This document shows, one piece after another, positions 12,898 through 59,274 of a DNA stretch of 64,000 nt (its first letter is position 1; each line of letters opens with the position of its first letter). Source of the stretch: Bdellovibrionota bacterium (GTDB lineage: Bacteria > Bdellovibrionota_C > UBA2361 > CAKMMH01). Under the pieces are notes generated by a model that worked only from the letters and a program-made list of their open reading frames with translations, had not been told where the DNA came from and did no database searches. The position numbers and the translations under genes were made by a program. The stretch covers positions 2,205 through 66,204 of the forward strand of contig JAXFOK010000015.1 of NCBI GenBank assembly GCA_034180415.1, in the 5' to 3' direction.

Positions 12898-14640
12898 ATG
12901 AGCAACTCTTTATTAGAACCTAACAAAGACATATTATCACGTATTGGTCATTACGTAGTAACAGATATTGGCGCAAAGAGAGAAACTAATCAAGATAATT
13001 TTATCGTCGTTTATGGTGAAAATTTCATATACTATGTCGTTTGTGATGGTATGGGCGGAACTGATGGCGGAGAAATCGCTTCCCAAATGACGGTTTCCTA
13101 TATAGATTCTGAATTAAAAGGTAAAAAAATAAGTGACATTGAAGATGTAAAAAAAGTAGTATATGAAGCTAATGAGAGAGTTTTCGAATATGGCATGGAA
13201 CATAAAGAAGTTCAAGGCCTAGGTACAACAATAACAAGTTTACTTGTGATGCCAAAAAGTTCATGGACTTTAAATGTTGGTGATTCAAGAGTTTATAAAA
13301 TCTTTGGCGATACGATAAGTCAAATTACAGAAGATGATACAGTTTTAAATGAGCTTATAAAATCTGGTGTTATATCTCAGGAAAAAGCAAAAAGTCATCC
13401 CATTTCAAATATGCTTACTAAGACTATCGGACAGGGAAAAAGTCTTGAGATTGAAACAACGAGACTCGGATTTTTAGATTATAGGGAAAGATTTATTTTA
13501 TGTTCAGATGGCTTATATAATATGGTTTCTGATAATGAAATCATGGAAATAATAAGCAATAATGATGTTAAAGAAGGTGTCAGAGGGTTAATAAAAAAGG
13601 CTAATGATAATGGTGGAATAGATAATATTACTGCGATGCTTGTAGGTGTATTTAACCAAAGAATATTATCTGATGAAGAAGAAAATAGCTTAATTGAACA
13701 ATCAAAAGCAAGGGTCGTAAAACCACAAGAGATATCAAATAATATAGATTACAATAAGCTTACTCAAAGGTTTGAGGAATTTAAAAATAGTGATGATGGC
13801 AAATATAAGAAATTATGGAATAAAACAGTTACTGACCACAATAACAATGAAAAAGTTGATGTGTCTAGTAGTGATTTAAGAGTATTAAGCCATTTAATTA
13901 TTTTAGTTGTATTGATAGTTTTAGGTTGTATTTTTGTAATTCCTAATAACAGTGTTAAACTTTCTAGGCAAATTCAAGAAGATAAATTTGAGGATAAAAT
14001 AGGCAATATTAAAGTTACAGAAGATGATTATAAGTTTAGGTTGAATTTTGAAGATAAAAAGTATGACGATAATGATAAGTTTATAGATTATTCTAAAAGA
14101 GAAATTATAGCTTATAATGAGATATTGGATATTGTTAAAAAAAGAGAAAGTTTATCAGAAGAAAAATTGTTAAGGCAAAAAAAAATATTATTAGATAGTA
14201 ATAAGGCTATAGAATCACAAATTAATAAATTGTCAGAAAAGATAAATGATATTAGAGAATATAATAACAAGAATTTATTAGATATTGCACGCGAGATATC
14301 AGAAAATGATGAAAATGTTAAAAAATTATCAGATGATTTTTTAAGTTTTTCATATGATATTCTTAATAATGATTTAAATCAAAATGATTACAATAAAATC
14401 AAAGAAGAAAAATTAAATAGGTTATATAAGCAAGTTGAGAGCTATTTTTATGATAAGATTTCTAAATATGAAATTCAAATAAAGTCTATGCAAGATAAAT
14501 TGCTTAGTAATCAATTTAATCTTTCAATTGTTGATTTAAAAATGCAATATGCAAAATTATTAGTTGATAATGAAGAAGAAAAATTAAAAGATTTTGAGGC
14601 AAAAATTAATACATTAAAGCAAAGAGTAAGCAAATCTTAA
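12898..14640 (+). CDS. PP2C-family Ser/Thr phosphatase with a C-terminal TM segment and a long coiled-coil domain
   Basis: N-terminal PPM motifs (YVVCDGMGGTDGGEIAS, ...CSDGLYNMVSDNE..., DNITAMLV). TM helix LSHLIILVVLIVLGCIFVI. The C-terminal about 230 aa is heptad-like. Confidence 0.8.
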   Translation: MSNSLLEPNKDILSRIGHYVVTDIGAKRETNQDNFIVVYGENFIYYVVCDGMGGTDGGEIASQMTVSYIDSELKGKKISDIEDVKKVVYEANERVFEYGMEHKEVQGLGTTITSLLVMPKSSWTLNVGDSRVYKIFGDTISQITEDDTVLNELIKSGVISQEKAKSHPISNMLTKTIGQGKSLEIETTRLGFLDYRERFILCSDGLYNMVSDNEIMEIISNNDVKEGVRGLIKKANDNGGIDNITAMLVGVFNQRILSDEEENSLIEQSKARVVKPQEISNNIDYNKLTQRFEEFKNSDDGKYKKLWNKTVTDHNNNEKVDVSSSDLRVLSHLIILVVLIVLGCIFVIPNNSVKLSRQIQEDKFEDKIGNIKVTEDDYKFRLNFEDKKYDDNDKFIDYSKREIIAYNEILDIVKKRESLSEEKLLRQKKILLDSNKAIESQINKLSEKINDIREYNNKNLLDIAREISENDENVKKLSDDFLSFSYDILNNDLNQNDYNKIKEEKLNRLYKQVESYFYDKISKYEIQIKSMQDKLLSNQFNLSIVDLKMQYAKLLVDNEEEKLKDFEAKINTLKQRVSKS

Positions 14641-16708: not shown

Positions 16709-17050
16709 TTATTTTGAATTATTACTTGCTGCAGCTAGTGCGTCTAATTCACCGTCTGGAGAAACTATCTGAGTTACCCTTATACCAAATTTATCATTTA
16801 CTACTACTGCTTCACCTTGTGCTAATAATTTATTATTAACTCTAATATCTAAAGGTTCTTCTGGAAGTTTATTTAATTCTATAATTGAACCTTTTCTTAA
16901 TTTTATAAGTTTATCAAGAGTGCACTCAACTCTTCCTAGCTCTACAGATACTATGAGTTCTACATCATAAAAGAATTGAAGTGTACCAACTTTATCTTGA
17001 ATTGAAGCTGATTCAACAATATTCTCTTTTTCTTTTTTTTGCTCTTCCAT
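16709..17050 (-). CDS. FliN/SpoA (SctQ C-terminal) domain protein, orphan
   Basis: ELIVSVELGRVECTLDKLIKLRKGSIIELNKLPEEPLDIRVNNKLLAQGEAVVVNDKFGIRVTQI is a clear SpoA/FliN fold signature. 113 aa. No other flagellar or T3SS switch genes are adjacent. Confidence 0.75.
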   Translation of the reverse strand: MEEQKKEKENIVESASIQDKVGTLQFFYDVELIVSVELGRVECTLDKLIKLRKGSIIELNKLPEEPLDIRVNNKLLAQGEAVVVNDKFGIRVTQIVSPDGELDALAAASNNSK

Positions 17051-17235
17051 AAATTTAACCTAAGTAAAAAACTTTTCTTAGCTTATTTGATGCAAATTAT
17101 ATGAAAAAAGACTAAAAAAAGTCACAATTTTTAATATTTACTTAAAATTTTCTTCGAATTTTACCGATAAATGAAATAATCAAGGTTTATAGGTATTATA
17201 AAAAATTAGTTTTAATTGATAGATTTACGACAAAT

Positions 17236-18501
17236 ATGGAACAAATAGCTGGAAAATATAATATTATTAGGTTGTTAGGTAAAGGAGCTACTGGGGAAGT
17301 GTACCTTGTAGAGCATAATGACCTAAAGTTAGAATATGCACTAAAACTTTTGTCAAAGGAAGTTTCAAATAACGATGTGGTCGTAGAAAGATTTATAAAA
17401 GAGGCAAGATTACTAGAAAAATTTTCCCATAAAAATACTGCAAGATTAAGAGATTTTGGAAAAAATGATGATGGCCGTTATTACATGACTACTGATTTTT
17501 GTAAGGGGATTACATTAAGCGAGCTTGTAAAGAAAAGAGGGGCTATTAATTATAATTTAGCTCTTAAAATCATGATTGATATTTTAGATGTTCTATCTTG
17601 CGCACATAAAGAAGGGGTAGTTCATAGGGATATAAAATCTGAAAATGTGATAGTAAATTTTAATGAAAATTTTGATGATTATGATGAGTTAAAAGTGCTT
17701 GATTTTGGTATAGCCAAAATGAAGCAAGATATTAAATTAAATGATACAAAGACCATAGATGGTTCTGCATTAGGGACTCCTCAATATATGGCTCCAGAAC
17801 AAGCAGCTGGTGAACCTAATCTTGATCATAGGATTGATATTTATTCGGCTGGAATTGTTTTATATGAGCTTCTTGCTGGAAAAGTTCCTTTTTTTGGGGA
17901 AACTATAGTTCAAACGCTTTTAATGCATTTAACTCAGCCGATTCCTCCTTTTGATGAATCATTAAACATTCCAGAAGATGTTTCTAATATTGTTAATAAA
18001 GCATTACAAAAAATCCCTAACAATAGATATCAAACTGCTGAAATGTTTATGCAAGATTGTAAAAAGATTTTAAATTGTGAAAACGTTGGGGAAGTTTCAG
18101 GTGATAATGGTGCGTATGTTATAAATGATGAAAAAAAAGAGAAAACGAAAATTCTATGTATTGATGATAATCAGATGATTTTAAATATAATTAGCCATAT
18201 TTTAACAAAAGAGGGATTTGAAGTATTTACTACAAATGATCCGAGTACACTTCATAGTTATTTATTCCAAGAAAGAATAGATTTGTTGATTTCAGATATA
18301 AATATGCCAAGTATTAACGGTAATGATTTGTGTAAAATGTTAAAACAAACCATGCCAAGCCTTAAAATAGCACTTTTTTCGAATATTCCAGAACAAGACT
18401 TAGAAGCGCTTGCAAAAGATGCGTCAGCAGATGCTTGGATTTCAAAAAACGAAAAGCCAAATGTGTGGCTTGAAGGGATATATAAACTACTAGGAAGATA
18501 A
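17236..18501 (+). CDS. Hanks-type Ser/Thr protein kinase fused to a C-terminal response-regulator receiver (REC) domain
   Basis: Kinase motifs are intact: GKGATGEV, ALKLL (VAIK-like Lys), HRDIKSENV, DFG, APE. The C-terminal about 120 aa is KILCIDDNQMILNIISHIL ... DLLISDINMP ... IALFSN (REC with phospho-acceptor Asp). Confidence 0.85.
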   Translation: MEQIAGKYNIIRLLGKGATGEVYLVEHNDLKLEYALKLLSKEVSNNDVVVERFIKEARLLEKFSHKNTARLRDFGKNDDGRYYMTTDFCKGITLSELVKKRGAINYNLALKIMIDILDVLSCAHKEGVVHRDIKSENVIVNFNENFDDYDELKVLDFGIAKMKQDIKLNDTKTIDGSALGTPQYMAPEQAAGEPNLDHRIDIYSAGIVLYELLAGKVPFFGETIVQTLLMHLTQPIPPFDESLNIPEDVSNIVNKALQKIPNNRYQTAEMFMQDCKKILNCENVGEVSGDNGAYVINDEKKEKTKILCIDDNQMILNIISHILTKEGFEVFTTNDPSTLHSYLFQERIDLLISDINMPSINGNDLCKMLKQTMPSLKIALFSNIPEQDLEALAKDASADAWISKNEKPNVWLEGIYKLLGR

Positions 18502-18692: not shown

Positions 18693-21002
18693 ATGAAAAT
18701 GTTACAAAGAGAAAAATTATTTTTAAGTTGTGTTTTTAGTCTTGCATTTATTGTTTTAACAAATAATGGAAATGCATTGTTAATTGATGATTTTAAGGAT
18801 GTTGATAATAATGGAAATCCTCTTGGACTGCAATCAAGCGTAAATTCAACTAATAGTACAAGTTGGAATGATGTTGGGTTAGCAAATGTAGTGGGCGGTT
18901 GTCGTAAAGTTGTTTTGAGTGGAGATGGAAGTGGAGTTTTTTCAGCTGGAAAGTATTCTCACAACCAAGATGATGCAAAAACTGCAAAGTCAATAATAAC
19001 ATGGGGGGAATGTGAAGACGGTACAGTGATGTCTGAAGTAGATTTCACAAAAGATGGTTCTAAATATTTTGTAGTCAAGTATAATAGTAATGATAGCGTG
19101 GATTATAGAGGAAAAATATATTTAAGATTATGGGATAGCTCTGATCATGAAGCAAATGTTCAGTGTGATCGTTATGAATCCGAGGAAGTGTACAAATGTA
19201 TGTACAAAAAATATACAGATGTTGATGTCGAGCTAGATAAGATTGTAAAGATTCAGTTGATAATGGATGGTTCAAGTGCATCTGGTTGGGATTTCGGTAT
19301 TGAGTCAGTTTTGACTGGAAATAGCCAAAATACAGTTTGTGGTGTTGTTCCTACTGCATCAAATAATTATGGTGCTAAAGATGAATGTGGATTCTGTCCA
19401 AATGATATAATGCCTGATAAATATCAATATGGTCAAGGAAAAGATGAGTGTGATTATTGTCCAAATGATACTTTGCCTGCTAACTATCAATATGGTGATG
19501 GAAAAATTTGTCGTAATTCATGTGATGTAAATCAAAATTGCGGATGGTGTCCAACAATCGATAATCCAGGAAAAGCTCATCAGAGGTATACTTGTAAGCA
19601 ATGTGATGATGGAATGGATAATGACGGAAAGGGTGATATTGACTGTGCTGATCCTCAATGCTTAAAGGGGGTTAATGGAAGCTGTGATCCTAACTATAAT
19701 AGTGAAGCACCACAGTGTAGCAATAAGAAAGATGATGATAATGATGGTAAGGTAGATAAAAACGATCCAGCATGTCTTGATGAAAATGGCAATTATAACC
19801 CAGACCTTGATGATGAATCAGATGAACCTGCTTGTTCTGATAAAGCAGATAATGATGGTGATGGTTTGATTGATTCAAAAGATCCTGGTTGCTATGCGAA
19901 AAATCCAAATACTGGAAAATATGAATATAAGCCAAATAAAAAGAGTGAAGAAGGACCAAATACTGAATGTTCAGATTCAAAAGATAATGATGGTGATGGA
20001 TATATTGATAGTAAAGATCCTGATTGTTGGTATACTGATTCAATTAAGTTAGGTGGAACTAAAGACTATTCAAATGAATCACCTTTTTATGATTGGAATC
20101 CTTGGGATCTTTCAGAAAGTGGTGCAAGAAAGTATCAATGTTCAGATGGAAAGGATAATGATGATGATGGGTTAGTTGATGCGCAAGATCCTGGATGTTT
20201 AGATGATAGTGGTAATTGGAATCCTAAGAAAGATAGCGAAATTAATTCAGATGATGGAAAACCAGAATGTTCAGATGGTAAGGATAATGATAAAGATGGA
20301 TATATAGATTATCCTGATGATCCAGGTTGCACATCAAAGGATGATGATTCTGAAAATGACAACATTACAAAGCCTGAATGTTCTGATGGTATTGATAATG
20401 ATAAAGATGGAAAAATTGATGAAGCTGATACTTCATGTTGGGTTTATGATAATAATGGAAATCCAATTAAGTACGATCCTAATATCGATGATGAATCAGG
20501 ATGTACAACAACTTCTAATGTAAGTAACTTAGATGTTGATAATGAAAGATTAGCTACAATTGGTTTAAATGCTGCTTTATATTTAAAGAGATTCCATGCT
20601 AATTCAAGTAATGAATATAAGAGAACTACTCTTTCTGCAAAACGTGCTGGAACTAAGATTAGTAAGGAAATTAATAAGGTGGTGACAGATTTGAAATCTT
20701 ATTCAGTTTCTTGTAATAGTCAGACAGGTTCTTCATGTAGAAATAACAATAATACAGAGCTTAACAAGTTTTCACAACAAGTTAGTCAATTAAATAAACT
20801 TGTTCGTCGTGCACAAAGAAGAGGTTTGTTCTTTAAGAAGAATTTTGAAAGCAAGGCAATTTCAAAAGCTAAGCAACAAAAAGCAGGTTACAAAAATGCA
20901 AAAGCTACTATGACTAATAACAGAAAGGCTGGAACAAGAATAACTGTTTATAATAATATAAATGCCAAGGTTAGTAGTATTAAGTCATTAGCTATTTGCT
21001 AA
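18693..21002 (+). CDS. Secreted protein (769 aa) with tandem Cys-bounded Asp-rich calcium/metal-binding-type repeats (TSP3/MopE-like) and a basic Lys/Arg-rich C-terminal domain
   Basis: Signal peptide. CPND-containing units (CGFCPNDIMPDKYQYGQG, CDYCPNDTLPANYQYGDG). At least 7 units of C-S-D-x-K-D-N-D-x-D-G-x-(I/V)-D-x-x-D-P-x-C (e.g. CSDKADNDGDGLIDSKDPGC, CSDSKDNDGDGYIDSKDPDC). Basic tail rich in K/R/N/S. Confidence 0.8.
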   Translation: MKMLQREKLFLSCVFSLAFIVLTNNGNALLIDDFKDVDNNGNPLGLQSSVNSTNSTSWNDVGLANVVGGCRKVVLSGDGSGVFSAGKYSHNQDDAKTAKSIITWGECEDGTVMSEVDFTKDGSKYFVVKYNSNDSVDYRGKIYLRLWDSSDHEANVQCDRYESEEVYKCMYKKYTDVDVELDKIVKIQLIMDGSSASGWDFGIESVLTGNSQNTVCGVVPTASNNYGAKDECGFCPNDIMPDKYQYGQGKDECDYCPNDTLPANYQYGDGKICRNSCDVNQNCGWCPTIDNPGKAHQRYTCKQCDDGMDNDGKGDIDCADPQCLKGVNGSCDPNYNSEAPQCSNKKDDDNDGKVDKNDPACLDENGNYNPDLDDESDEPACSDKADNDGDGLIDSKDPGCYAKNPNTGKYEYKPNKKSEEGPNTECSDSKDNDGDGYIDSKDPDCWYTDSIKLGGTKDYSNESPFYDWNPWDLSESGARKYQCSDGKDNDDDGLVDAQDPGCLDDSGNWNPKKDSEINSDDGKPECSDGKDNDKDGYIDYPDDPGCTSKDDDSENDNITKPECSDGIDNDKDGKIDEADTSCWVYDNNGNPIKYDPNIDDESGCTTTSNVSNLDVDNERLATIGLNAALYLKRFHANSSNEYKRTTLSAKRAGTKISKEINKVVTDLKSYSVSCNSQTGSSCRNNNNTELNKFSQQVSQLNKLVRRAQRRGLFFKKNFESKAISKAKQQKAGYKNAKATMTNNRKAGTRITVYNNINAKVSSIKSLAIC

Positions 21003-21514: not shown

Positions 21515-22762
21515 ATGAAATTATTAATTATTGATGTTTCAACAGAAGCTCAAGCAAAGTGTGCTAAAAAAATAGAGCCTTTTAATAGAAGTGATGTCGA
21601 AATGCTTGATTTAAAAATCAAGCTTGCAAACGAGCAAACTTATAAAGATATTCTAGAAGGAGCAGATGTTGCAATACTTGGTGCAGGGTTAGGTGAGTCT
21701 GCAATAGTGGTCGCAAGAGAGATTGCAAGCGTGTGCCCTTGGATGAATATTATAATGTTTGTTAAAGAGTCATTATACGGTGGAAGCTCTTTTAGAAGCG
21801 CACATTCAGTGGGCGTAAGAAAAGTTTTTTCTGATAACGCAAGTCCTCTTGATTTCTTGCAAGAACTTGTAGCAATTCACAGTGAATTTAGAAAAGAAGG
21901 TCGAGCCAGGGAAGGTATAGTTGTCGCGGTGAATCATGCCAAGGGAGGCGTCGGAGCAACTTCAATTTGCGCAGCTCTTGCAGAGGTTTGTGGAGTTTAT
22001 AATAAAAGGACACTTCTTTGGGATTTAGATGTCGAGACAAGAGATTTAAGTCGCTCTCTTACTGCAAGTGGAACAGAAGCCAAAGTAGTTTCATCGTGGG
22101 TTAATGGTTCAAGAGAAATTTCAAGAGAATCTTTAAAAGATGCACTTTTACCTATAAGTAATGAAGTTTCAATATTAATTCCACCAGATTGTATGGCTGA
22201 GTCTATGGATTTAGTGTGTCATACAGATAGTATAGCTCTTTGTAGTAGAATTTTAGAGCTTTCAAGAGTGCTTTTTGACGTAATTATTATTGATACTGGT
22301 GGAAGAATGGGACCTGCTACTGGAGCAGTAGTAAGAAATAGTGATAAAACTTTAATTGTTATTGATGATACGATTTTGGGACTAACAGCTGTCGATCTTT
22401 ATTTAAATTTTATTAAGAGTTTAGTTGGAACTCCAGATAGAATTAATTTTTTAATAAATCAATATACTGGAAATCTTCTTACAAAAAATCAGATTGAAGC
22501 TGAGTTAGAACCTATTCATAGGTTAGGACATGAGGTTTGGAGCTTAGATCCAGTGTATATGGACCCAAAAGCTAGCCTTTGGTCAGCAAGTGGTAAGACG
22601 CTTTATAGTTTAGGTAATAGAAATACAAGAGTTGCTCTAGAAAAGATGGCTGTAATTCTAGGACTTACTATTCAACATGGCGTAGTAAAGAGAGAAAACC
22701 AAGCAAATAATAACCAAAAAGAAAAAGGACATAAGTTTTTGAATTTTTTTAATAAAAAATAA
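21515..22762 (+). CDS. tadZ: TadZ/CpaE-type pilus-assembly ATPase (ParA/MinD-like, N-terminal degenerate receiver domain)
   Basis: N-terminal MKLLIIDVSTEAQAK REC-like fold. Deviant Walker A AVNHAKGGVGATSICAALA. 415 aa. Located at the head of the flp operon. Confidence 0.8.
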   Translation: MKLLIIDVSTEAQAKCAKKIEPFNRSDVEMLDLKIKLANEQTYKDILEGADVAILGAGLGESAIVVAREIASVCPWMNIIMFVKESLYGGSSFRSAHSVGVRKVFSDNASPLDFLQELVAIHSEFRKEGRAREGIVVAVNHAKGGVGATSICAALAEVCGVYNKRTLLWDLDVETRDLSRSLTASGTEAKVVSSWVNGSREISRESLKDALLPISNEVSILIPPDCMAESMDLVCHTDSIALCSRILELSRVLFDVIIIDTGGRMGPATGAVVRNSDKTLIVIDDTILGLTAVDLYLNFIKSLVGTPDRINFLINQYTGNLLTKNQIEAELEPIHRLGHEVWSLDPVYMDPKASLWSASGKTLYSLGNRNTRVALEKMAVILGLTIQHGVVKRENQANNNQKEKGHKFLNFFNKK

Positions 22763-22935
22763 TGTTTGTTATTTTTGTTAATATTTGAATCTTTTTTTAA
22801 AAAAAAGAATCTTAATACTTAAATATATGAGGTTTGTATTTGCTGATTTTTTAGTTTTAGTTTAAGTTGTAGTTATAAATAGCTATATTTGTAAACTAAA
22901 AATTTAAATAATATATATATTAAGGAGAAAGTAAA

Positions 22936-23109
22936 ATGTTAAGAATTTTTAGTAAGAAAGAAAAAGGTGCTTCACTCGTTGAGTACGCGTTACTAGTTGC
23001 TTTAATTGCATTAGGATCAATGGCTGCTATGAGATTACTATCAAATAATATTTCAGGTGCATTCTCTCAATCAGGTAGTATATTACAAGATGTAAGTAAA
23101 GCAGGTTAA
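22936..23109 (+). CDS. flp: Flp-family pilin precursor (57 aa), absent from the supplied ORF track
   Basis: MLRIFSKKEKGASLVEYALLVALIALGSMAAMRLLSNNISGAFSQSGSILQDVSKAG carries the Flp signature (G/ASLVEYALLVALIAL: prepilin-peptidase site G|A, conserved E and Y). Strong RBS aaggagaaagtaaaATG. Sits directly upstream of cpaB/tadA/tadB/tadC. Confidence 0.8.
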   Translation: MLRIFSKKEKGASLVEYALLVALIALGSMAAMRLLSNNISGAFSQSGSILQDVSKAG

Positions 23110-23127: not shown

Positions 23128-24039
23128 ATGAAGCCACTTAGTTCTCAACCAGATAGTAATTCTAAGCTAATTTTTTTAGTTGCAATTGTTGTAATGCTTT
23201 TGCTAGGTGGCTTTCTTTTAATTTTTTTCGGATTTAGTAATAAATCTAATAATACCGGACAAAATTTTGATAATCCACAAAGTGAATTGAATGATAATAT
23301 AAATACTAGAGCAGAAAATAATGCAAATGTTGAAAGAACAGTTCAGGTTTTAGTTACAATAAGAGATATTAAAAATGGCGAAAAATTAGATCCTACAATG
23401 TTTAGGAAAGAAACAAGGCCAGAAAATTTTGTTAAACCTGATGATTATAGAGATTTTTCACAGATAGATGGTTTTTTTGCAAAATCAGATATTGGATTTA
23501 GAGAAACTATAGACCCAAATAAAGTATCAAGAAAAAAACCAGTAAATACTATAACGGCTAATATTCCTGAAGGTTACAGAGCTGTTACAATTAATGTTGA
23601 TGTGACAAGTAGTGTAGAAGGTTGGGCAAGAGCAGGAGCGTTTGTTGATGTTGTATGGAATTCAGTGATAAATGGAAAACCAGCTGCTACTGTAATTATT
23701 CAAAATGCAAAAATTTTATCAGCAGAAAGGCAAATTGAGGCTAATCCACAAGAGGGACAGGCTCCTGTTCCTAGTACTGTAACACTTCTTGTGCTTGCGG
23801 ATGATGCAACAAAAATTCATCTTGCAGAAACCACTGGTAAGTTAAGTTTACAGTTAAGAGGGGACGATGCTGAAAAAGGATTTGGGGCAAGAACTTCCCT
23901 TACAATAGATGATTTACTTGATAAGAATAATGGTAAAAAAGATAATAAAAAGTATGATGCTATTGTAAAAATTAAAGGTAAAAATGGTAAAATGGAAAGG
24001 TGGGGATTAAAGGATGGAAGTCTTGTTCTAATTGAGTAA
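23128..24039 (+). CDS. cpaB: CpaB/RcpC-family Flp pilus assembly protein
   Basis: N-terminal TM anchor, then a SAF-like region (VQVLVTIRDIKNGEKLDPTMFRKETRPENFVKPD) and a beta-rich C-terminus, at the canonical position between flp and tadA. Confidence 0.65.
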   Translation: MKPLSSQPDSNSKLIFLVAIVVMLLLGGFLLIFFGFSNKSNNTGQNFDNPQSELNDNINTRAENNANVERTVQVLVTIRDIKNGEKLDPTMFRKETRPENFVKPDDYRDFSQIDGFFAKSDIGFRETIDPNKVSRKKPVNTITANIPEGYRAVTINVDVTSSVEGWARAGAFVDVVWNSVINGKPAATVIIQNAKILSAERQIEANPQEGQAPVPSTVTLLVLADDATKIHLAETTGKLSLQLRGDDAEKGFGARTSLTIDDLLDKNNGKKDNKKYDAIVKIKGKNGKMERWGLKDGSLVLIE

Positions 24040-25555: not shown

Positions 25556-26485
25556 GTGTCTATTGAGGTTATACTAGGAATAATATTAATTCTTTTGTCA
25601 ATAATTGTCGCTTGTGTGCTATTATTGTCTAATAATAATTCTAGTCATTCAAATTTTAAAAGTTTAAGTTCTCAAAAGAATAACAATGATAATAATTTAG
25701 AAGATATTGATTTTGTAAAAGTAGAAAGAACTAGCAATGGAAAATATACTTTAAGACAAAAAATGATATATGCAAATTGGAAATTTCCTCCAATCCTATT
25801 TAATATGTTTAGGTTTTCATTAGCAATTTTATGCTTTATGATAGCAAAGACCTATTTTAAGATTTTTTTATCTACTATTATTGCCTTTTTAGCTTTTAAC
25901 TTTGCAAATGGTTTTTTAAACAGGGCAATAAAGAAAAGATTCGATGCGTTTGATAAAGACTATCCAACATTTTTACAAACAATAGTAAGTTTATTAAAAT
26001 CTGGTATGAATGTACTTACTGCTATAGATTCAGCATCTGAGGGGCTAGAAGATACGTCACTTTTAAAAAGTGAAGTTAAGGTCATGATGGAAAGATTAAG
26101 AGCAGGAGTCGGTGAAGAAAAAGCTATTGGAAATTTTGGAGCAACAATTGATCATCCAGAAATTGAATTATTTATCCAAACTATAATTTTAGGAAAAAGC
26201 CTAGGTGGTTCTTTATCTATGACCCTTGATAGGCTTGCAGAACAAGTAAGAAAAAGACAATATTTTAGAGGCTCAGCAGTTGCTTCTATAGCACAGCAAA
26301 AAGGATCTTTATGGGTTATTTTATATTTATTATCAGGTTTAATTATTACAATTGGATGTAAAGCTCCAGATTTATTTGCTGTTGGATTGCATAGCAATGG
26401 TGGTAGAATGGTCTTGGAAATAGGAATATGTATTATATTGCTTGGAATATTTTGGATTAAGAAAGTTATAAATATTAAGGTATAA
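25556..26485 (+). CDS. tadB: TadB (GspF-like inner-membrane platform protein)
   Basis: T2SSF domain (PTFLQTIVSLLKSGMNVLTAIDSASEGL ... IQTIILGKSLGGSLSMTLDRLAEQVRKR) with flanking TM helices. GTG start. Confidence 0.75.
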   Translation: MSIEVILGIILILLSIIVACVLLLSNNNSSHSNFKSLSSQKNNNDNNLEDIDFVKVERTSNGKYTLRQKMIYANWKFPPILFNMFRFSLAILCFMIAKTYFKIFLSTIIAFLAFNFANGFLNRAIKKRFDAFDKDYPTFLQTIVSLLKSGMNVLTAIDSASEGLEDTSLLKSEVKVMMERLRAGVGEEKAIGNFGATIDHPEIELFIQTIILGKSLGGSLSMTLDRLAEQVRKRQYFRGSAVASIAQQKGSLWVILYLLSGLIITIGCKAPDLFAVGLHSNGGRMVLEIGICIILLGIFWIKKVINIKV

Positions 26486-27346
26486 ATGAATTTATTAATT
26501 GGTTTTATCATAATTTTTGCGATTATAACTTTTGTGTTATTTGTAGTAATTGTTTATTCGAATAAGAAAAATCAAGAAAAATCTACTCCTAAATATTTAT
26601 CAAATTCTTCTAAAAAAAATGTAGCAAAAAATAATACTAAATCAAAGAATGGTAAAGATGAAAGTTTAGAATCACTTTTTTATAGAGCTGGAATCTTTGA
26701 TGAAAAAGACAAGGCGGCTTTTAATAGGAAAAAAGTGCTTTATCCATTAATTTTTGGAATTATAGGAGCCATATTAGGGATTTATTATGGAGGATATTCA
26801 CTTTTTCTAATGCCTACCTTAGGTGCATATCTTGGTTTAAAATTTCCAGGAAGAATACTAAATAAAAGAATAAAAGAAAGAGATGAAGATATCTTATACT
26901 ATTTACCACTTGTAATAGAGCAATTAGTTGTAGGAGTAAGTAGCGCACTTGATATAGGCCCATGTATAGCTTATGTCGTCGATATGGCAGAAAAAAGAGG
27001 AACACATAATCCTGTCACAATTCTTTTAAAACAAGTACAAATTTTAGTTAGATTTGGTGCATCATTAGATGACGCACTTGTAGATGTTGGTAAGCAATCA
27101 GGTCATAATGAACTTAAAAATAGCTTTTTACAACTTTCACAGGTTACAAAGCATGGTGGTGAAATTACGAAACAATTACAAGATCTTGGAACAACAGTTA
27201 CAAGACAACGTGAGATTATAATTGATGAACGTATAAAAAGATTGGAATTAAAAGCAACAGGCCCTGTATTTTTAGTATTTGCCGGCCATATGGCTATATT
27301 ATTAGCATTCTTATTTATGGGGCTAGCAAAATCTCTTAGTAATTAA
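26486..27346 (+). CDS. tadC: TadC (second GspF-like platform protein)
   Basis: T2SSF-like region (ILYYLPLVIEQLVVGVSSALDIGPCIAYVVDMAEK ... QVQILVRFGASLDDALVDVG) plus TM helices. The start abuts the tadB stop. Confidence 0.75.
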   Translation: MNLLIGFIIIFAIITFVLFVVIVYSNKKNQEKSTPKYLSNSSKKNVAKNNTKSKNGKDESLESLFYRAGIFDEKDKAAFNRKKVLYPLIFGIIGAILGIYYGGYSLFLMPTLGAYLGLKFPGRILNKRIKERDEDILYYLPLVIEQLVVGVSSALDIGPCIAYVVDMAEKRGTHNPVTILLKQVQILVRFGASLDDALVDVGKQSGHNELKNSFLQLSQVTKHGGEITKQLQDLGTTVTRQREIIIDERIKRLELKATGPVFLVFAGHMAILLAFLFMGLAKSLSN

Positions 27347-27411: not shown

Positions 27412-29496
27412 ATGAAGAAATTTCAGATTCAAGGGCAAGATTTTGTATTAGCACTTTTTGTGCTATCAATTACCGCAATGCTTGTAATACCACTTCCTAC
27501 AAGTATGCTTGATTTCTTGCTTGTTATTAACATTTCATTTTCATTGCTTCTTTTACTTGCTGGATTATATATGCCAAATGCGTTGGCATTAATTTCTTTT
27601 CCTTCACTTCTTTTATTAACAACACTTTTTAGATTAGGTTTAAATGTAGCATCTACAAGATTAATTTTGAGCCAAGGAGATGCAGGCCATGTTATTGAGG
27701 CTTTCGGTACATTCTTAATTAGAGGTGAAGTAACAATTGGTGTTATTATATTTTTAATAATAACAATTGTAAATTTTATAGTTATCGCAAAAGGTGCAAA
27801 TCGTGTATCAGAGATTACAGCAAGATTTTCACTAGAATCGCTTCCTGGAAAACAAATGGCAATAGACTCTGATCTTCGTTCAGGAGTCATTGATGTTAAT
27901 CAAGCTAGAAAAAGAAGAGATGACTTAAGAAAAGAATCACAGCTTTATGCTGCTATGGACGGAGCGATGAAATTTATTCAAGGTGATGCAATTGCGGGCT
28001 TCTTTATAACACTTACAAATATTATAGGTGGTTTGTATATAAGTTTAAGAGGTGGAATGAGCCTTGGTGAAGCTGTAGAAACTTATACAACGTTAACTGT
28101 AGGTGATGGATTAGTTAGTCAAATTCCTGCGCTTTTAATATCAATATGCGCTGGTATCGTTGTTACAAGAGTTAGCTCAGGTGAAAATTCAACACTTGGT
28201 AAAGAACTTCAAGGACAACTTCTTAGTAGTCCAAGTATTATAATTTTTACAGGTTCTGTACTATTTTTCTTTGCTATACTCCCAGGACTTCCTGCATTAC
28301 AATTTATAAGTGTTGGTACGTTCTTAATAAGTGTTGGTTTATATTTAAATTACAAAAAAAGAGAAAGTACAAGAAATGTGGAGTTTCTTCCAATATCAGT
28401 TCTAAAGGCAAATCGAGAATTGTTAGAAAGCGATAATAGTAAAATACAAAATGTATTTCAAATATTTATAGATAAAGAGTTTGGAAGTTACGTAAATGAT
28501 AACTCACTTTCTATTTTACAGAAATGTAATGAGTATAAGGAAAATTTTAAAAAAATGACAGGTTTCGAGTTTCCTCAATTTAAATTTGTCATAAAAAATG
28601 AAATATTAAAAAATGCATTTAAAGTTTATAAATTGAACACGCTTGTCGTAGAATCTAGTTTTAAAGATGACATGATATATTTAAATATTAATAAATCTGA
28701 GCTTCCAATTTTGGGATTAAAAGATTTTGTTGAGGATTATCATCCTATATATGGAAATAAACTTTATGGCGTTATTAAAAATACATATACAAGTTTGTTA
28801 TGTGAAGAAACGGATTTAATGTATTATGATAAAATCGATTGGATTTTATTAAATATTGCAAGTTTTTGCATTGATAATCCAATAGAGTTTTTTAGCATTT
28901 CGGATATTACAAAAGTGTTGAAAGATATAGAAAAAGATTATCCAGAGATAATAAAAGATTTGTTTTCTATACCCAAAGTTAATAGTGCAAAAATTTTCAA
29001 AGTATATGCTGAGCTCATGAGACAAGAGATATTTTATATATCACATAAAGAAATTTTAGAAGGTATTATTTCATATTTTAATGGTTATAATGTATCTGAC
29101 GAATCTGATTTTGATGTATTTAATATTGTAAGTTATATAAGGCAAAGTAAAAAATTACATGTTACGTATAATTCAATTTATAAAGATAAAAGAATAAAAC
29201 TTTGTAGTATTTCAGATGAACTTCAAGAAACTTTTGAAGAAATGATACCACAAGTTTATGAGGGAAGTGTTAATTTAGATTTAAAAGATTTTGGGGTAAT
29301 TAAGAATAATATTGTGGCACTTCAAAGACCATATTTAGAAAAAGGTGTAACAAGCTTTTCGATAGTTAGTTCTAAAGAGTTAATACCTGTTATATATAGT
29401 GTACTTAAGATTTTTCAATTAAAGATTAATATAGTAGAATTTGATGAGTTAACATCTGATTTAAAAATAGAACATATTGGAATTTGGAGAAAATGA
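27412..29496 (+). CDS. FlhA/SctV-family (FHIPEP) type-III export-gate protein paralog, encoded at the 3' end of the tad operon
   Basis: The N-terminal 330 aa align almost residue-by-residue with the FlhA membrane domain (LLLTTLFRLGLNVASTRLIL, ITARFSLESLPGKQMAIDSDL, MDGAMKFIQGDAIAG, TVGDGLVSQIPALLISICAGIVVTRV). The C-terminal cytoplasmic domain is divergent but retains an FlhA-like stretch (KENFKKMTGFEFPQFKFVIKN, cf. RKKFAQDMGFLPPVVHIRDN). Confidence 0.85.
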   Translation: MKKFQIQGQDFVLALFVLSITAMLVIPLPTSMLDFLLVINISFSLLLLLAGLYMPNALALISFPSLLLLTTLFRLGLNVASTRLILSQGDAGHVIEAFGTFLIRGEVTIGVIIFLIITIVNFIVIAKGANRVSEITARFSLESLPGKQMAIDSDLRSGVIDVNQARKRRDDLRKESQLYAAMDGAMKFIQGDAIAGFFITLTNIIGGLYISLRGGMSLGEAVETYTTLTVGDGLVSQIPALLISICAGIVVTRVSSGENSTLGKELQGQLLSSPSIIIFTGSVLFFFAILPGLPALQFISVGTFLISVGLYLNYKKRESTRNVEFLPISVLKANRELLESDNSKIQNVFQIFIDKEFGSYVNDNSLSILQKCNEYKENFKKMTGFEFPQFKFVIKNEILKNAFKVYKLNTLVVESSFKDDMIYLNINKSELPILGLKDFVEDYHPIYGNKLYGVIKNTYTSLLCEETDLMYYDKIDWILLNIASFCIDNPIEFFSISDITKVLKDIEKDYPEIIKDLFSIPKVNSAKIFKVYAELMRQEIFYISHKEILEGIISYFNGYNVSDESDFDVFNIVSYIRQSKKLHVTYNSIYKDKRIKLCSISDELQETFEEMIPQVYEGSVNLDLKDFGVIKNNIVALQRPYLEKGVTSFSIVSSKELIPVIYSVLKIFQLKINIVEFDELTSDLKIEHIGIWRK

Positions 29497-45410: not shown

Positions 45411-46556
45411 TTAAAAGCTTTCAAAAGCATTAGGGTCTGTAGTCGGTTTCATTTCTACAGGCTTTCTATTATTATTTTCTAGAGAATATTTAGACTTAAT
45501 ATATTGAGGCCAAACTCTTAATGCGTCAAGACATTTAGGGGAATAAATTCCGTTTTGTTCGCATATTGAACTTGGGTAGGTCTCTTCAAAACTGCTAATT
45601 TCCTTTAAAAAATCTTGGCAATCTCTTGATAAATAAATAATTTTGTCAACTTGCTTTAAATTTTGATTTGTATCTTCGTTTTTTTTGCTTTTTGACTTTT
45701 CTTCATCTGAGATGGTGTTAAAGATATCAAAATCACCAAGTTCTAAATTATTTTGATTTTTGCATGTTATACATTTGTCTGAATATCTTTCTTTTTTTTC
45801 TCTACAAAGATTTCTCACTATTTTATCTCCAATTGAGATAACTTTCATAAAATTATTTATTGAGTTTTGAGTCTTGTATAAATTTTTAGCATTAAAATAA
45901 TCTGTTTTTAATTTTGGAATTTTGATATTATCAATCTTTTTAAAAAAATCTTTAAGTTCGGGAATTTCTTTCTTATCATTAGAGCTACTTTCTTTTGCAT
46001 TTGAAATAATAATGTGAGAATAACCTTCTATACATCGCTTATCTTTATATCCATATTTTGCACATAATCCAATAGGGGAGTAGGGATAAAGAGCAAGAAG
46101 TTCTTTAACAATATCTTCACATTTTGTATTTTGTGGATCTGGTTTGTAATTTAAGTCTTTGTGAAAATTTGGCATGCAAATTAATGGCACAGTTTTTTCA
46201 AGTTCGTTTAATAAAACTTTTTTAGCATTAGAGATAATATCTTTATCATTTGTTTTTAAAGAGTTAGTGTAATCGCTTTTGGCTTTAGCAACTGACAACT
46301 CTTGAACTTTCACAAAAGTGTCATTATCTCCATGTTCATTTTTGCCTTTAATATGATTAATTGTATCATCGATATTAACTAAAGTTTCTAAAGTATCTTT
46401 TTGAGATTTCTCTAATTTCTCTAAATTTTTATTAAACTCTTCATTAATTTTTAATGAATCATTATTGACATTATCTTCACCATAAGAAATCGTTGAAAAA
46501 CATAAACTAAAAATTATAAAAGTAATTGATATTTTTTTTAAAATATTTTTTGACAT
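45411..46556 (-). CDS. Secreted Cys-rich protein (381 aa), unknown function
   Basis: Signal peptide MSKNILKKISITFIIFSLCFSTISYG. About 14 Cys in paired arrangements, probably disulfide-rich. No catalytic motif recognised. Confidence 0.5.
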   Translation of the reverse strand: MSKNILKKISITFIIFSLCFSTISYGEDNVNNDSLKINEEFNKNLEKLEKSQKDTLETLVNIDDTINHIKGKNEHGDNDTFVKVQELSVAKAKSDYTNSLKTNDKDIISNAKKVLLNELEKTVPLICMPNFHKDLNYKPDPQNTKCEDIVKELLALYPYSPIGLCAKYGYKDKRCIEGYSHIIISNAKESSSNDKKEIPELKDFFKKIDNIKIPKLKTDYFNAKNLYKTQNSINNFMKVISIGDKIVRNLCREKKERYSDKCITCKNQNNLELGDFDIFNTISDEEKSKSKKNEDTNQNLKQVDKIIYLSRDCQDFLKEISSFEETYPSSICEQNGIYSPKCLDALRVWPQYIKSKYSLENNNRKPVEMKPTTDPNAFESF

Positions 46557-46739: not shown

Positions 46740-47495
46740 TTATACTAAATATTTAGTAAAGTTTGCGACATTACTAGCGTTAGCATCAAGTGCTTTTTGA
46801 GGTTCATCAACAATTTCGTTTTGAAGAGTATTAGTTAGCTTTATTGCTTCTTCAAAATTATTTAATTTATTTCCGACATCTAAATTTTTGTCTGTTTCGT
46901 TTTTAACTTCTTCGAAATTCTTTGAAATAGTATGTTTTAGTAATGTAATTCTTGCTTCTGCTGTTTTTACTGTTGCTAGTGTGTTTATAATATTCTCTTT
47001 TTTTGATAATTCAATTTTTTCTATTCCAAAGCCATCTTTTATGTCGTCTGGAAATATTATGTCTAGTGTTTGACCAATTTTATTTTCGACATAAATCTTG
47101 GCTTCTTCATCAGTTAATGGTTTTATACTATCGAAATCGGTTTCATCAGTTAAAGTTTTCATTCCAGAAAGAAGATCGTTTGCTTCTTTTTGTAAAACTT
47201 GAACTTTCTTTGGTACGATTTCTGCATTACTGTTTGCAACTTGTTCAACGATACCTTTTATACTTTCAAACATATCGCTTATTTTTTCTGTTGCATCGTT
47301 TGCAAGATTTAGTATAGAAATTGTTTTATTAGTTTCTTCTGTACGTTTTAGATTTGATTCTTTAGGTTTAGAAGATACAGAAACTACGTCAACTAGCGTA
47401 TTGATTGCGCTTTGTACTTTATTGGTAACTGCTTCGCCCGTAGGCCTGTTTACCTTTTCAAGTATTATGTTGTTATTAGTTCCTTCTATTTTCAT
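46740..47495 (-). CDS. Hypothetical helical protein (251 aa)
   Basis: No signal peptide. Heptad-rich, charged. No motif recognised. Same strand as its neighbours. Confidence 0.4.
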   Translation of the reverse strand: MKIEGTNNNIILEKVNRPTGEAVTNKVQSAINTLVDVVSVSSKPKESNLKRTEETNKTISILNLANDATEKISDMFESIKGIVEQVANSNAEIVPKKVQVLQKEANDLLSGMKTLTDETDFDSIKPLTDEEAKIYVENKIGQTLDIIFPDDIKDGFGIEKIELSKKENIINTLATVKTAEARITLLKHTISKNFEEVKNETDKNLDVGNKLNNFEEAIKLTNTLQNEIVDEPQKALDANASNVANFTKYLV

Positions 47496-47581: not shown

Positions 47582-48457
47582 CTATAAGAAAATTTTCTTA
47601 AATTTGTTGTTTTTGCTCTCAACGTGCTCATTTGGAGCAAAAATTTTCTTTAAATTTTCAAAACGAAGGATATTCGGGTCTTCCTTTGATAGATAAGAAA
47701 TGACATCACCTAGGCTTCTTCCTAGCAAAAATTTAGGCAAATATTCATATTTTACGCACTCATAGACGTATTCTGAGGCTATTCTTGATGATTGACTAAT
47801 AGCCCTATCTAAATGAAGTGCTATATGAAAACTTGTTACTTTTGGATTATAACGCTCTAAACTTATTGAAAATTCTTCCCCAGAAACGGAGGCTAGGGCC
47901 TTTAATCTTAATATCTTCATAGTAATTTTAGGGTCAGGTTGCCTAAATCTGTCAAGTACGTGTTCAGTTGGTCTTAAAACCTTATTGTAAAGATCAGTTA
48001 AACATGAAATCGTAAAATATATAGAATTATTTAGGATAAGTATTTCATTTATTGTGATATCTCTTGTTTGAAAATACTTTTCGGTACTTTCTAAAACTTC
48101 TATTCCGTGTCCATGTTTAGAATCATCTTTCATAAAAGCAAGTTCTAGCTCTTTGTCGATTTTTGATGTTTTTTTATCACCAAATCTAACAATATCAATA
48201 TCTCTTGGGCGTCTAAATGAAAAATTGTAATTTAACGCAAATCCTAGTGCTAATCTTGCGGCTCCTCCTTTAAAACCGTATTGAGGGGGAATTGTTGGGA
48301 GTAAATCAATTTGAGGAAGTTTTATTGATAAAATGTTATCTACAAATGACTCGAATTTTACTTTTGGTGCTAATTTTAAAATATCATTAGGTATATTTAA
48401 AAAATTGTAAGATTGCTTTATTAGTTTGATTTTATTAATATTTTCGTTTTGACTCAT
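47582..48457 (-). CDS. Putative nucleotidyltransferase-fold protein (pol-beta / minimal NTase-like)
   Basis: FKGGAARLALGF ... RRPRDIDIVRF fits the G[GS]-(x)n-[DE]h[DE]h pattern of pol-beta-superfamily NTases. A third acidic residue is possible in ...RDITINE. The exact family (CD-NTase/SMODS-like, MNT, other) cannot be decided by eye. Confidence 0.35.
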   Translation of the reverse strand: MSQNENINKIKLIKQSYNFLNIPNDILKLAPKVKFESFVDNILSIKLPQIDLLPTIPPQYGFKGGAARLALGFALNYNFSFRRPRDIDIVRFGDKKTSKIDKELELAFMKDDSKHGHGIEVLESTEKYFQTRDITINEILILNNSIYFTISCLTDLYNKVLRPTEHVLDRFRQPDPKITMKILRLKALASVSGEEFSISLERYNPKVTSFHIALHLDRAISQSSRIASEYVYECVKYEYLPKFLLGRSLGDVISYLSKEDPNILRFENLKKIFAPNEHVESKNNKFKKIFL

Positions 48458-55600: not shown

Positions 55601-56181
55601 AATGAACGAATTTCCTCTGGAGAAATAACTTCAATTTTATTAATTTCGTGAGATGTTCTAAAGCCATCAAAAAAGTGCATAAAAGGAACTCTAGCTTTTA
55701 GAGTTGACATATGAGCAACCATTGCCATATCCATGCTTTCTTGAACTGAGCTTGAAGCTAACATTGCAAAACCAGTTTGTCTGCAAGCGTAAATATCACT
55801 ATGATCGCCAAATATTGAAAGAGCGTGAGTTGCAAGAGTTCTTGCTGCTACATGGAAAACTGCTGATGTAAGCTCACCTGCAATTTTGTACATATTTGGG
55901 ATCATTAAAAGAAGCCCTTGAGATGCGGTAAAAGTTGTACTTAATGCTCCTGCTTGAAGTGCTCCGTGAACTGCACCTGCTGCACCTCCTTCACTTTGCA
56001 TTTCGTAAACTCTAGGAACTGTTCCGAAAACATTTTTAACATTTTTGGCACTCCAGCTATCTGAATGTTCTCCCATAGGAGAAGATGGAGTAATTGGGTA
56101 AATAGCAATTACCTCACTTAAATTAAACGCCACATGAGCAGCAGCCTCATTAGCATCCATGATTGCTTTTTGATTAGTCAT
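52654..56181 (-). CDS. nifJ: Pyruvate:ferredoxin (flavodoxin) oxidoreductase, single-chain (NifJ/PFOR)
   Basis: 1175 aa. Two 4Fe-4S ferredoxin motifs (CIQCGKCSIVCPHA, CTGCGLCVENCP). TPP-binding C-terminal domain (GGDGWAYDIGYGG). Characteristic N-terminus MTNQKAIMDANEAAAHVAF. Confidence 0.95.
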   Translation of the reverse strand: MTNQKAIMDANEAAAHVAFNLSEVIAIYPITPSSPMGEHSDSWSAKNVKNVFGTVPRVYEMQSEGGAAGAVHGALQAGALSTTFTASQGLLLMIPNMYKIAGELTSAVFHVAARTLATHALSIFGDHSDIYACRQTGFAMLASSSVQESMDMAMVAHMSTLKARVPFMHFFDGFRTSHEINKIEVISPEEIRSLIDIKDVIAHRERGLSPDRPFIRGTAQNADVFFQSREAANVYYQKTPEIVKEAMKKLEKVTGRHYDLYDYYGAKDAERILILMGSGAETTEEVVDYMSSKMGEKVGVLKVHLFRPFSVKDFIDAIPTTVKSIAVLDRTKEAGSLGEPLYLDTVAAFAETDRKVKIIGGRYGLSSKEFTPAMIKAVFDELKKDTPKNHFTVGITDDLTNTSLTYDPNFRTEDESTFRGIFIGLGSDGTVGANKNSIKIIGNETDNYTQGYFVYDSKKSGGLTKSHLRFGKNKIRSIYLIDHANFVACHQFSFVEKLDVLKEAAKGATFLLNAPYEADEVWDKLPRELQQEIIDKDIQFYSINAYDVALKNGMGTRTNTIMQTCFFAIANILPKDEAIEKIKAAIKKTFGKKGDEVVQKNYKVVDESLVHLHKIDYPKQVTSTITRRQVVSDKAPEFVKKVIAPMMAFEGESLKTSDLPADGTFPSATTKWEKRAIALSVPEWDPETCIQCGKCSIVCPHAVIRMKAYSEDKLKNAPAGFKSADIKDKTFPEGTKFTLQLSCEDCTGCGLCVENCPAKSKKVEGGKALNFVPFEPIRKQEVECWDFFNTIDYTDRNKVQHNTVKGSQLLEPLFEFSGACQGCGETPYIKLVTQLFGDRMLVANATGCSSIYGGNLPTTPYAKNKDGRGPAWANSLFEDNAEFGLGFRLTVDKKNAQAKELLEALKDKAGSALVEEILTASQSTEEEINAQRERVAKLKDALKNDSSDEALELVSLADYLVKKSVWIFGGDGWAYDIGYGGLDHVLASGQNVNVLLLDTEVYSNTGGQMSKSTPTGAVAQFAAAGKSTGKKDIGLHAMSYKNVYVASISLGANDAHAVKALLEAENYDGPSLIICYAHCIAHGIDLRNGLNEQKKAVNSGHWLLYRYNPENAKEGKNPLTLDSKEPSIPLSDYIYGENRYKMLVKSNPERAEELAKIAQENVNARYDYYKKLANL

Positions 56182-58326: not shown

Positions 58327-58392
58327 TATTTAATTTAGTATTTAATGCTAAAGTTTTTTCTTTTTTAGGATTTTATAAAGGTATTTTTAATA

Positions 58393-58788
58393 ATGACGCT
58401 TGGAACATATAAACAAGATATATTTGATTTAGAGATACAGGCGTGGTGCTACGGATTAAAAAATTACCCTGGCCAAATCAATACAGATTTAGTGGCTGCA
58501 GTGTTAAATGAAGTTGCGCCCTGTTTCAAAGAGGCATTAAAAGCAAATTTACAATTTAGAGTTGTTGATATTGCTGAACAATTTGTCGAAGCTAGCCATT
58601 ATGTAGTAGATCATTACACAATCACAAAGTTAATATGTCAAAGTTTTCCAAATCCTAATGATTTATCAGACGATATGGACGAGTTATATTTAATTGCAAA
58701 TATACTTGATGAAATCGAAGGTCAATATGTGGGATTTCATACAGTAATGGAAAATTATTGGAGTAATACTTCAAAAAGTGCTGCTTAA
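58393..58788 (+). CDS. Hypothetical acidic protein (131 aa)
   Basis: ORF with a plausible start. No motif. Confidence 0.4.
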   Translation: MTLGTYKQDIFDLEIQAWCYGLKNYPGQINTDLVAAVLNEVAPCFKEALKANLQFRVVDIAEQFVEASHYVVDHYTITKLICQSFPNPNDLSDDMDELYLIANILDEIEGQYVGFHTVMENYWSNTSKSAA

Positions 58789-59261: not shown

Positions 59262-59274
59262 TTTGGGGATAAAA

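Follow-up and report, generated by a model that had tools for sequence, protein, structure and literature searches.

The window (the whole 64,000-nucleotide stretch of Bdellovibrionota contig JAXFOK010000015.1 analysed here) carries a short flp gene on its forward strand, followed by genes for Tad-type pilus machinery, an FHIPEP-family protein and a kinase-like membrane protein (Table 1). Translating the flp frame reproduces exactly the 57-residue protein quoted in the original prediction, which had proposed an unannotated Flp pilin gene from the nucleotide sequence. An in-frame stop lies four codons 5′ of the ATG with no start codon between them, so position 22936 is the sole possible start. 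The canonical Shine–Dalgarno sequence that had been claimed is also present, with AAGGAG 8 nt before the ATG, and both its GGAG core and the ATG are kept in an alignment with two relatives, L008 and L007, which were fetched through CpaF (84% and 78% CpaF identity, respectively). In these relatives a further in-frame ATG overlaps the Shine–Dalgarno sequence (TATGGAGAT), and the called products are accordingly 60 and 58 residues long, beginning MEIIK and MEINK (L008:8757-8939, L007:7088-7264). The window carries AAG at this place (22921-22938), which indicates that the downstream ATG is the conserved flp start.

Table 1 Features of the flp locus in the window and FHIPEP orthologues in related loci.
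Feature	Coordinates	Strand	Basis or remarks
tadZ/cpaE-like ParA/MinD-family ATPase gene, N-terminal receiver-like region	21515..22762	+	Pfam AAA_31, CbiA
Shine–Dalgarno AAGGAG	22922-22927	+	8 nt 5′ of flp ATG; read from sequence
flp prepilin gene	22936..23109	+	ATG to TAA, 57 aa plus stop codon; translation MLRIFSKKEKGASLVEYALLVALIALGSMAAMRLLSNNISGAFSQSGSILQDVSKAG
Predicted leader peptide MLRIFSKKEKG, residues 1-11	22936..22968	+	Putative prepilin-peptidase cut after Gly11
Predicted mature pilin, 46 aa (ASLVEYALLVALIALGSMAAM...)	22969..23106	+	Glu5/Tyr6, hydrophobic helix, variable C-terminal part
cpaB/rcpC	23128..24039	+	Pfam RcpC, SAF; TIGR03177 pilus_cpaB 127.5 bits vs 71, equivalog-level
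tadA/cpaF secretion ATPase gene, 485 aa	24058..25515	+	Pfam T2SSE 115 bits; TadA-family TIGR03819 217 bits
tadB-like inner-membrane platform protein gene	25556..26485	+	Pfam T2SSF; polytopic by hydropathy
tadC-like inner-membrane platform protein gene	26486..27346	+	Pfam T2SSF; polytopic by hydropathy
FHIPEP (FlhA/SctV-family) export-gate protein gene	27412..29496	+	Pfam FHIPEP 522 bits; directly after tadC
Kinase-like single-pass membrane protein gene, ~776-783 aa	29498..31828	+	After FHIPEP gene; alternative TTG start 29477
FHIPEP orthologue	L008:13544-15628		
FHIPEP orthologue	L015:7820-9910		
FHIPEP orthologue	L017:3157-5241		
FHIPEP orthologue	L019:5096-7201		
FHIPEP orthologue	L020:10001-12097		
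FHIPEP orthologue	L021:10001-12094		
FHIPEP orthologue	L022:5618-7720		

Membership in the Flp family was evident from several comparisons. The Pfam search suggested as a check on the original prediction returned Flp_Fap (PF04964) at 34.8 bits against a gathering score of 32.2 (E = 1.4e-8), aligned over profile positions 1-43 of 46, and the E-value would stay significant after correction for the few thousand six-frame open reading frames that we estimate for 64 kb. The L008 orthologue scores 46.7 bits on the same profile. Among 5.8 billion proteins searched, 2,065 homologues were found at E <= 0.001, and the best 120 of the 2,065 all belong to PF04964. Identification as a minor pilin (TadE/F) was ruled out by the small size of the product, its Flp_Fap match, and the absence of a TadE domain.

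The Flp motif reads KEKG/ASLVEYALLVALIALGSMAAM, with Gly at −1 and XXXXEY followed by about 20 hydrophobic residues, and the residues of the predicted G/A cleavage site and the Glu/Tyr pair noted earlier, which here form G/AxxxEY, are borne out by conservation. In an alignment of 35 homologues M1, G11, A12, V15, E16, Y17, and A22 are invariant and the hydrophobic stretch after the motif is nearly so; G11, A12, V15, E16, and Y17 are likewise invariant in eight Flp sequences from seven loci that share the gene block described below. The sizes are those of Flp pilins, with a 57-residue precursor, an 11-residue leader containing four Lys/Arg, and a predicted mature form of 46 residues. The best two PDB matches are solved Tad pilins, 8u1k (PilA) and 8u2b (Flp family pilin), each with a 45-residue chain. 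Because the first mature residue of both aligns to Flp residue 12, the comparison gives independent, though indirect, support for a predicted cut between G11 and A12. An AlphaFold2 model built from 33 sequences is a lone helix from residue 14 to residue 56 (pLDDT averages 79 overall and is 96 within the hydrophobic core), in keeping with the all-alpha-helical fold of Flp pilins. Since this model is a single helix, the blank result of a Foldseek search against the PDB (0 matches) was expected and is uninformative.

The gene occupies a conserved position and is under purifying selection. In L008 and L007 a flp frame likewise sits between the tadZ-like gene and cpaB, and orthologous frames occupy this position in L019–L022 and, interrupted by a gap, in L015. 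Flp identity to the window is 51% in L008 and 38% in L007, compared with 78-84% for CpaF; the N-terminus is conserved among orthologues and the C-terminal half has diverged, as is typical of pilins whose C-terminus is exposed. An identical Flp protein is encoded on six independent metagenome contigs, where the three polymorphic nucleotides (codons 11, 20, and 35) are all synonymous, and other members of the Flp cluster differ only by the conservative changes R3K, R33K, Q51K, and G57S. As the original prediction had stated, a single flp copy is visible: a motif regular expression and an HMM built from three orthologues, run over six frames, found exactly one in the window and no second copy. 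With the same two methods the close relatives have one flp each. L022, a more distant genome with the same block, has two tandem copies.

The description of the gene as unannotated applies only to the size-filtered open reading frame track used for the original prediction and fails for GenBank, where the identical protein is deposited as MDD7473633.1 (GCA_028724725.1) and MDY6089979.1 under the PGAP name 'Flp family type IVb pilin'. The record title of the former is 'MAG: Flp family type IVb pilin [Bdellovibrionota bacterium]', and the consecutive GenBank neighbours are an AAA ATPase, CpaB, a T2SS/T4P ATPase, two T2SS-F proteins, and a 'FHIPEP family type III secretion protein'. The frame is called in public assemblies, in 172 index blocks and on >100 metagenome contigs. 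The flp gene is a standard Flp-family prepilin gene that is already publicly known and named. Hiding a tad locus's structural pilin behind a size cut-off is a well-known annotation pitfall, one that PGAP already handles for this gene. A real case of a pilin missing from annotation was seen in L015 (GCA_964534945.1), in which the orthologous flp at L015:3299-3529 (MLRKFLKNKNQKGATLIEYAILCGVM...) is broken by a stretch of N and was left uncalled.

The proposal that the pilin belongs to an adjacent tad-type locus is supported by Pfam and NCBIfam matches for the tadZ-like gene upstream and for cpaB, tadA, tadB, and tadC directly downstream, so that TadA, TadB, TadC, TadZ, and RcpC, the canonical Tad/Cpa core, accompany flp. 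The tadZ-like ATPase matches NCBIfam CpaE_hom below cut-off, and its gene is directly 5′ of flp in every locus that reaches that far upstream. The distance is 173 nt from tadZ to flp and 18 nt from the flp stop to cpaB. Among the loci with sufficient sequence (L007, L008, L015, L019–L022), cpaB is followed directly by tadA with no secretin gene between them.

Several canonical partners were absent from the locus. Pfam scans covered the large majority of window open reading frames of >= 100 aa, together with gene tables for 10 kb past each end. No Secretin (RcpA/CpaC) match was found among the scanned window frames of >= 100 aa, within 10 kb past either end, or in L015 and L017–L022. One would not expect a secretin-less locus in a diderm Tad system, and because the secretin is missing, the locus alone offers the pilus no evident route across the outer membrane of a diderm cell. 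TadE, TadF, and TadD were not detected within ~84 kb or in eight related loci, with no TadE-family or TPR-pilotin match beside the locus, and the regular expression and HMM found no further prepilin-motif frames in the window. Peptidase_A24 was likewise absent within ~84 kb of flp and from the eight related loci, in a search that combined Pfam tables, hydropathy of unassigned frames (none polytopic), and a six-frame regular expression for the catalytic motif in the window.

The lack of a dedicated TadV near flp has precedents and would not rule out a functional Flp pilin. TadV is reported missing from both the operon and the genome of Bdellovibrio bacteriovorus, and no Bdellovibrio genome was found to encode it, yet Flp pilins are expressed and essential in these organisms (Avidan et al. 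2017, PMC5430801); Bd0114 was later proposed to be a KilA-like peptidase (Seef et al. 2021, PMC8460266 supplement). Myxococcus still makes and polymerises its major Flp pilin, KilP, without the locus peptidase KilA, and PilD is the suspected processor (PMC12075869). These Bdellovibrio and Myxococcus precedents make the absence of a prepilin peptidase, offered in the original prediction as grounds for refutation, a weaker objection than stated, and only genome-wide absence of every A24 peptidase would count against function.

Downstream of the tad genes, the block extends into two further genes. A search with the FHIPEP protein returned a small clade at 99-66% identity, after which identity falls to ~43%. 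We inspected the contexts of six matches, namely L015 (67%), L017 (80%), L019 (43%), L020 (39%; the closed genome CP129486.1), L021 (43%), and L022 (41%; an Oligoflexia-labelled MAG). The core order T2SSE–T2SSF–T2SSF–FHIPEP–kinase-like gene was present in 6/6, and RcpC directly precedes T2SSE in the five loci that reach that far. Flp is a called gene in four of the six (that of L015 is broken by the assembly gap) and a TadZ-like gene is present in three. The FHIPEP gene directly follows tadC in L008 as well. Across the loci examined, the block tadZ-flp-cpaB-tadA-tadB-tadC-FHIPEP-kinase-like occurs in genomes from 26% to 56% GC, in every case without a secretin. At the deepest divergence, identity to the window is 63-65% for TadZ, 62-65% for CpaF, 41-48% for Flp, 41-44% for FHIPEP, 40-42% for CpaB, 37-42% for TadB/C, and 23-26% for the kinase-like protein. 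In L017 the kinase-like gene is closely followed by a gene (L017:7742-11509, minus strand) for an unusually large protein of 1,255 aa that carries sigma-70 region 2/3/4 domains; this gene is absent at the equivalent position in the window.

The window copy of the kinase-like protein has no Pfam match. Its N-terminal half is kinase-like but degenerate, its C-terminal half is built of helical repeats, and hydropathy places one transmembrane segment at residues 306-324. Its orthologues (768-825 aa) have Pkinase matches, weak in three of four (L019, L021, and L022), and faint HEAT_2 matches in L019 and L022. The window FHIPEP scores 521 bits on the SctV model and 472 bits on the FlhA model, both below cut-offs, and all seven FHIPEP proteins of the block that were tested score higher on SctV (521-597 bits, cut-off 692) than on FlhA (472-547 bits, cut-off 772). 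YscV is the best PDB match, at 329 bits compared with 297 for FlhA. PGAP names the window protein only as 'FHIPEP family' and three distant orthologues as FlhA. Flagellar genes are close by, with FliN at 16709-17050 in the window and, beyond its upstream end, FlgK and a flagellin-like gene.

Scans for transcription signals were largely negative. Searches for sigma-70 promoters and intrinsic terminators around flp gave nothing above shuffled expectation, and neither tRNA nor Rfam scans turned up RNA genes in the window. Because FliA controls tad operons in BALO (Bdellovibrio and like organisms), we also scanned for sigma-28-like sites with the pattern TAAA-N14-16-GCCGATAA. No site was found upstream of flp, and the window-wide count was 3, compared with 3.6 in shuffles. 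The only good matches were upstream of a kinase-receiver gene in the window, at 17143, and upstream of the FHIPEP gene in L008.

This kinase-receiver gene (17236-18501, plus strand) encodes a Ser/Thr protein kinase fused to a C-terminal response-regulator receiver domain, and the best sigma-28-like match in the window, TAAA-N16-ACCGATAA at 17143-17170, precedes it. A PP2C phosphatase is encoded at 12898-14640, and similar PP2C, FHA, and kinase genes precede tadZ in distant genomes that carry the block. Signalling genes upstream of the block comprise FHA, PP2C, and Ser/Thr-kinase genes in L020 and L021, and PP2C and Ser/Thr-kinase genes in the window. Between the kinase gene and tadZ lies a gene (18693-21002, plus strand) for a 769-aa secreted protein with acidic double-disulfide repeats (NF033662, 7 repeats). 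This protein is 763-769 aa long among strains, and its exact window variant is absent from a collection of 15 billion proteins. The slot is hypervariable, since relatives hold unrelated genes there: unknowns of 493 and 269 aa in L008, and GT87 glycosyltransferases in L007 and L015.

The pilin and its locus can be compared with characterised Tad systems. Caulobacter crescentus PilA (8u1k; related 8u2b/8ucr) resembles the flp product in its mature length of ~45-46 aa, its A-x-x-[IV]-E-Y motif, and its hydrophobic helix. It aligns to residues 12-51 of the window Flp (E = 1.2e-3), both proteins are all-helical, and both genes adjoin cpaB, cpaF, and tadB/C-type genes; the C-terminal third of Flp, however, is unrelated in sequence to PilA. 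The Caulobacter cpa locus has the peptidase gene cpaA, the secretin gene cpaC, cpaD, and minor-pilin genes beside pilA, all of which are missing from the window locus. Flp1/tad of Aggregatibacter actinomycetemcomitans, the founding system, shares with the window the G/XXXXEY motif, a short basic leader, and a hydrophobic core, as well as the linkage of flp to tadZ, tadA, tadB, tadC, and rcpC homologues. The canonical Aggregatibacter order is flp-tadV-rcpCAB-tadZABCDEFG, whereas in the window tadZ precedes flp and tadV, rcpA, rcpB, tadD, and tadE-G are absent from the locus.

Further comparisons come from predatory bacteria. B. bacteriovorus, of the same phylum, has pilins of the same family in Flp1/Flp2, with the Bd0109-Bd0119 TAD (Kil-like) locus, and in flp3 (bd3297) and flp4. 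In the HD100 locus, the gene for the secretin RcpA (Bd0112) separates rcpC from tadA, and KilA-like Bd0114 is also present (PMC5430801; PMC8460266 supplement). The window locus differs from that of HD100 in having no secretin, an FHIPEP gene next to it, and one flp compared with two in the HD100 operon. The flagellar link also differs, being regulatory in Bdellovibrio through FliA control and physical in the window, where a sigma-28-like promoter is not detectable upstream of flp. The Kil pilus of Myxococcus xanthus likewise has a Flp-type major pilin, KilP, in a predatory 'delta-proteobacterial' lineage, and KilP is probably processed by a peptidase other than that of its own locus (PMC12075869, PMC8460266). 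Points of similarity also include nearby Ser/Thr-kinase and FHA-type signalling genes and, on the Myxococcus side, a functional association with a T3SS-family apparatus (PMC12075869, PMC8460266). KilP is larger than the window Flp, with at least 96 residues judging from an A96C variant (PMC12075869). Kil components include the short secretin KilC, the ATPase KilF with its fused FHA domain, and 14 minor pilins. In contrast, the window locus yielded no secretin and no minor pilins, and its TadA ATPase has a T2SSE match with no Pfam FHA domain. The FHA-fused ATPase, short N0-less secretin, and many minor pilins that would mark a Kil-like system were not found.

Bringing together the open frame, its family, motif, conserved position, purifying selection, and linkage to machinery genes, we regard flp as very probably encoding the major prepilin, of Flp type (Tad, type IVc), for the machinery specified next to it by tadZ-cpaB-tadA-tadB-tadC. 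The organism is an uncultured member of the Bdellovibrionota with low GC and a gut association. We hypothesize that the 57-residue precursor inserts into the inner membrane, where an aspartic prepilin peptidase encoded elsewhere (TadV/FppA/KilA-like or type IVa PilD) would cut after Gly11. The resulting 46-residue, all-helical pilin would begin ASLVEY, with Glu5/Tyr6, and could then be assembled into a fibre by the TadA ATPase acting via the TadB/TadC platform. The hydrophobic N-terminal helix, which is conserved, would lie within the fibre core, leaving the variable C-terminal part exposed. Predation in Bdellovibrio and Myxococcus depends on Tad/Flp pili, and by analogy with these genera the window pilus may serve adhesion or a prey-contact/predation step.

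Short frames such as this one can be spurious, as small chance open reading frames are many in AT-rich genomes and several were listed here, but the idea that flp is a chance frame in AT-rich intergenic DNA now carries almost no weight and is effectively refuted. It is contradicted by the above-threshold Pfam score, by the position and invariant motif residues conserved across distant genomes, and by the conserved Shine–Dalgarno sequence, and it is excluded because the polymorphisms among the six contigs are synonymous and the changes within the cluster conservative. An intact gene is still no proof of use, since B. bacteriovorus flp3 is intact but silent (PMC5430801). The window flp might similarly be unused or conditionally used, with a working Flp and complete tad locus elsewhere in the genome. 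The flp3 gene lies ~20 locus-tag numbers from fliA (bd3297 and bd3318; PMC5430801), which resembles the flagellar neighbourhood in the window, and the window locus does lack several canonical tad genes. We nevertheless find this very unlikely, given the purifying selection on flp, the conservation of Flp and five machinery genes over deep divergence, and the strong conserved Shine–Dalgarno sequence. Unlike flp3, moreover, the window flp is embedded among assembly genes. The literature (PMC3627812, PMC5430801) gave no indication of whether flp3 (bd3297) lies in the same FHIPEP-linked block.

A different function for the product, rather than its disuse, is suggested by the block as a whole. Instead of building a surface pilus, Flp may act as a periplasmic piston or short 'endopilus' within a Tad-derived machine that lacks a secretin and works with the FHIPEP and kinase-like proteins, in loose analogy to the Myxococcus Kil Tad pilus with a needleless T3SS*, though we judge this improbable. 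Extended further, flp would belong to an undescribed, phylum-wide, secretin-less module in which the Flp fibre and FHIPEP are parts of one Tad/T3SS-family hybrid envelope machine, an unlikely arrangement. Its conceivable but equally unlikely membership would be Ser/Thr kinase and PP2C signalling, tadZ-flp-cpaB-tadA-tadB-tadC, the SctV-leaning FHIPEP, and the kinase-like membrane protein. On this improbable reading, the machine would follow a logic like that of Myxococcus Kil plus T3SS* and would not be an ordinary adhesive pilus that happens to adjoin flagellar flhA. Such coupling draws on the retention of the block, always without a secretin, from genomes of 26% to 56% GC, on the consistent SctV-over-FlhA ranking of FHIPEP scores that fall below both cut-offs and the YscV match, and on the precedent of functional coupling between a Tad pilus and T3SS* (PMC12075869). 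However, a single FHIPEP without FlhB/FliPQR partners is no export gate, the secretin and peptidase may be encoded elsewhere, and synteny alone does not show physical coupling. The FHIPEP may also be plain flagellar FlhA, in view of the flagellar genes nearby and the PGAP names of three orthologues. The proximity of FliN, FlgK, and the flagellin-like gene makes it parsimonious to regard this protein as the lineage's divergent FlhA, with the tad genes syntenic to it, and this would fit the FliA control of BALO tad operons; a Tad-linked paralogue is the alternative identity.

With flp itself most probably an ordinary Tad prepilin gene, the neighbourhood, in which a secretin-less tad block is followed by a non-canonical FHIPEP gene and a kinase-like gene, is the only part that possibly deserves follow-up. 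If the linkage is functional, it would point to a new combination of components from type IV filaments and type III export. Should it amount only to synteny with flagellar flhA, it would still be a physical counterpart of the FliA control reported for tad operons in these predators.

Very divergent Bdellovibrionota retain this type of locus, among them an uncultured low-GC lineage that recurs in many metagenomes, at least one of them gut-labelled. Window GC is 29.9%, and a pyruvate:ferredoxin oxidoreductase is encoded at 52654-56181 on the minus strand. This enzyme, together with the recurrence in metagenomes, suggests that the host belongs to an anaerobic, gut-associated Bdellovibrionota lineage. 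The contig name of one relative includes 'gut.metagenome', and the names of some of the metagenome contigs that carry the flp sequence (MUNK18, GAIO21) hint at pig-gut studies. The same proteins are deposited in GenBank under both 'Bdellovibrionota bacterium' and 'Pseudomonadota bacterium'. Elsewhere in the window, open reading frames at 45411-46556, 46740-47495, 47582-48457, and 57634-59646 have no Pfam or NCBIfam match; match-less frames of this kind, several of them consecutive and 100-380 aa long, include one for a Cys-rich secreted protein of 381 aa.
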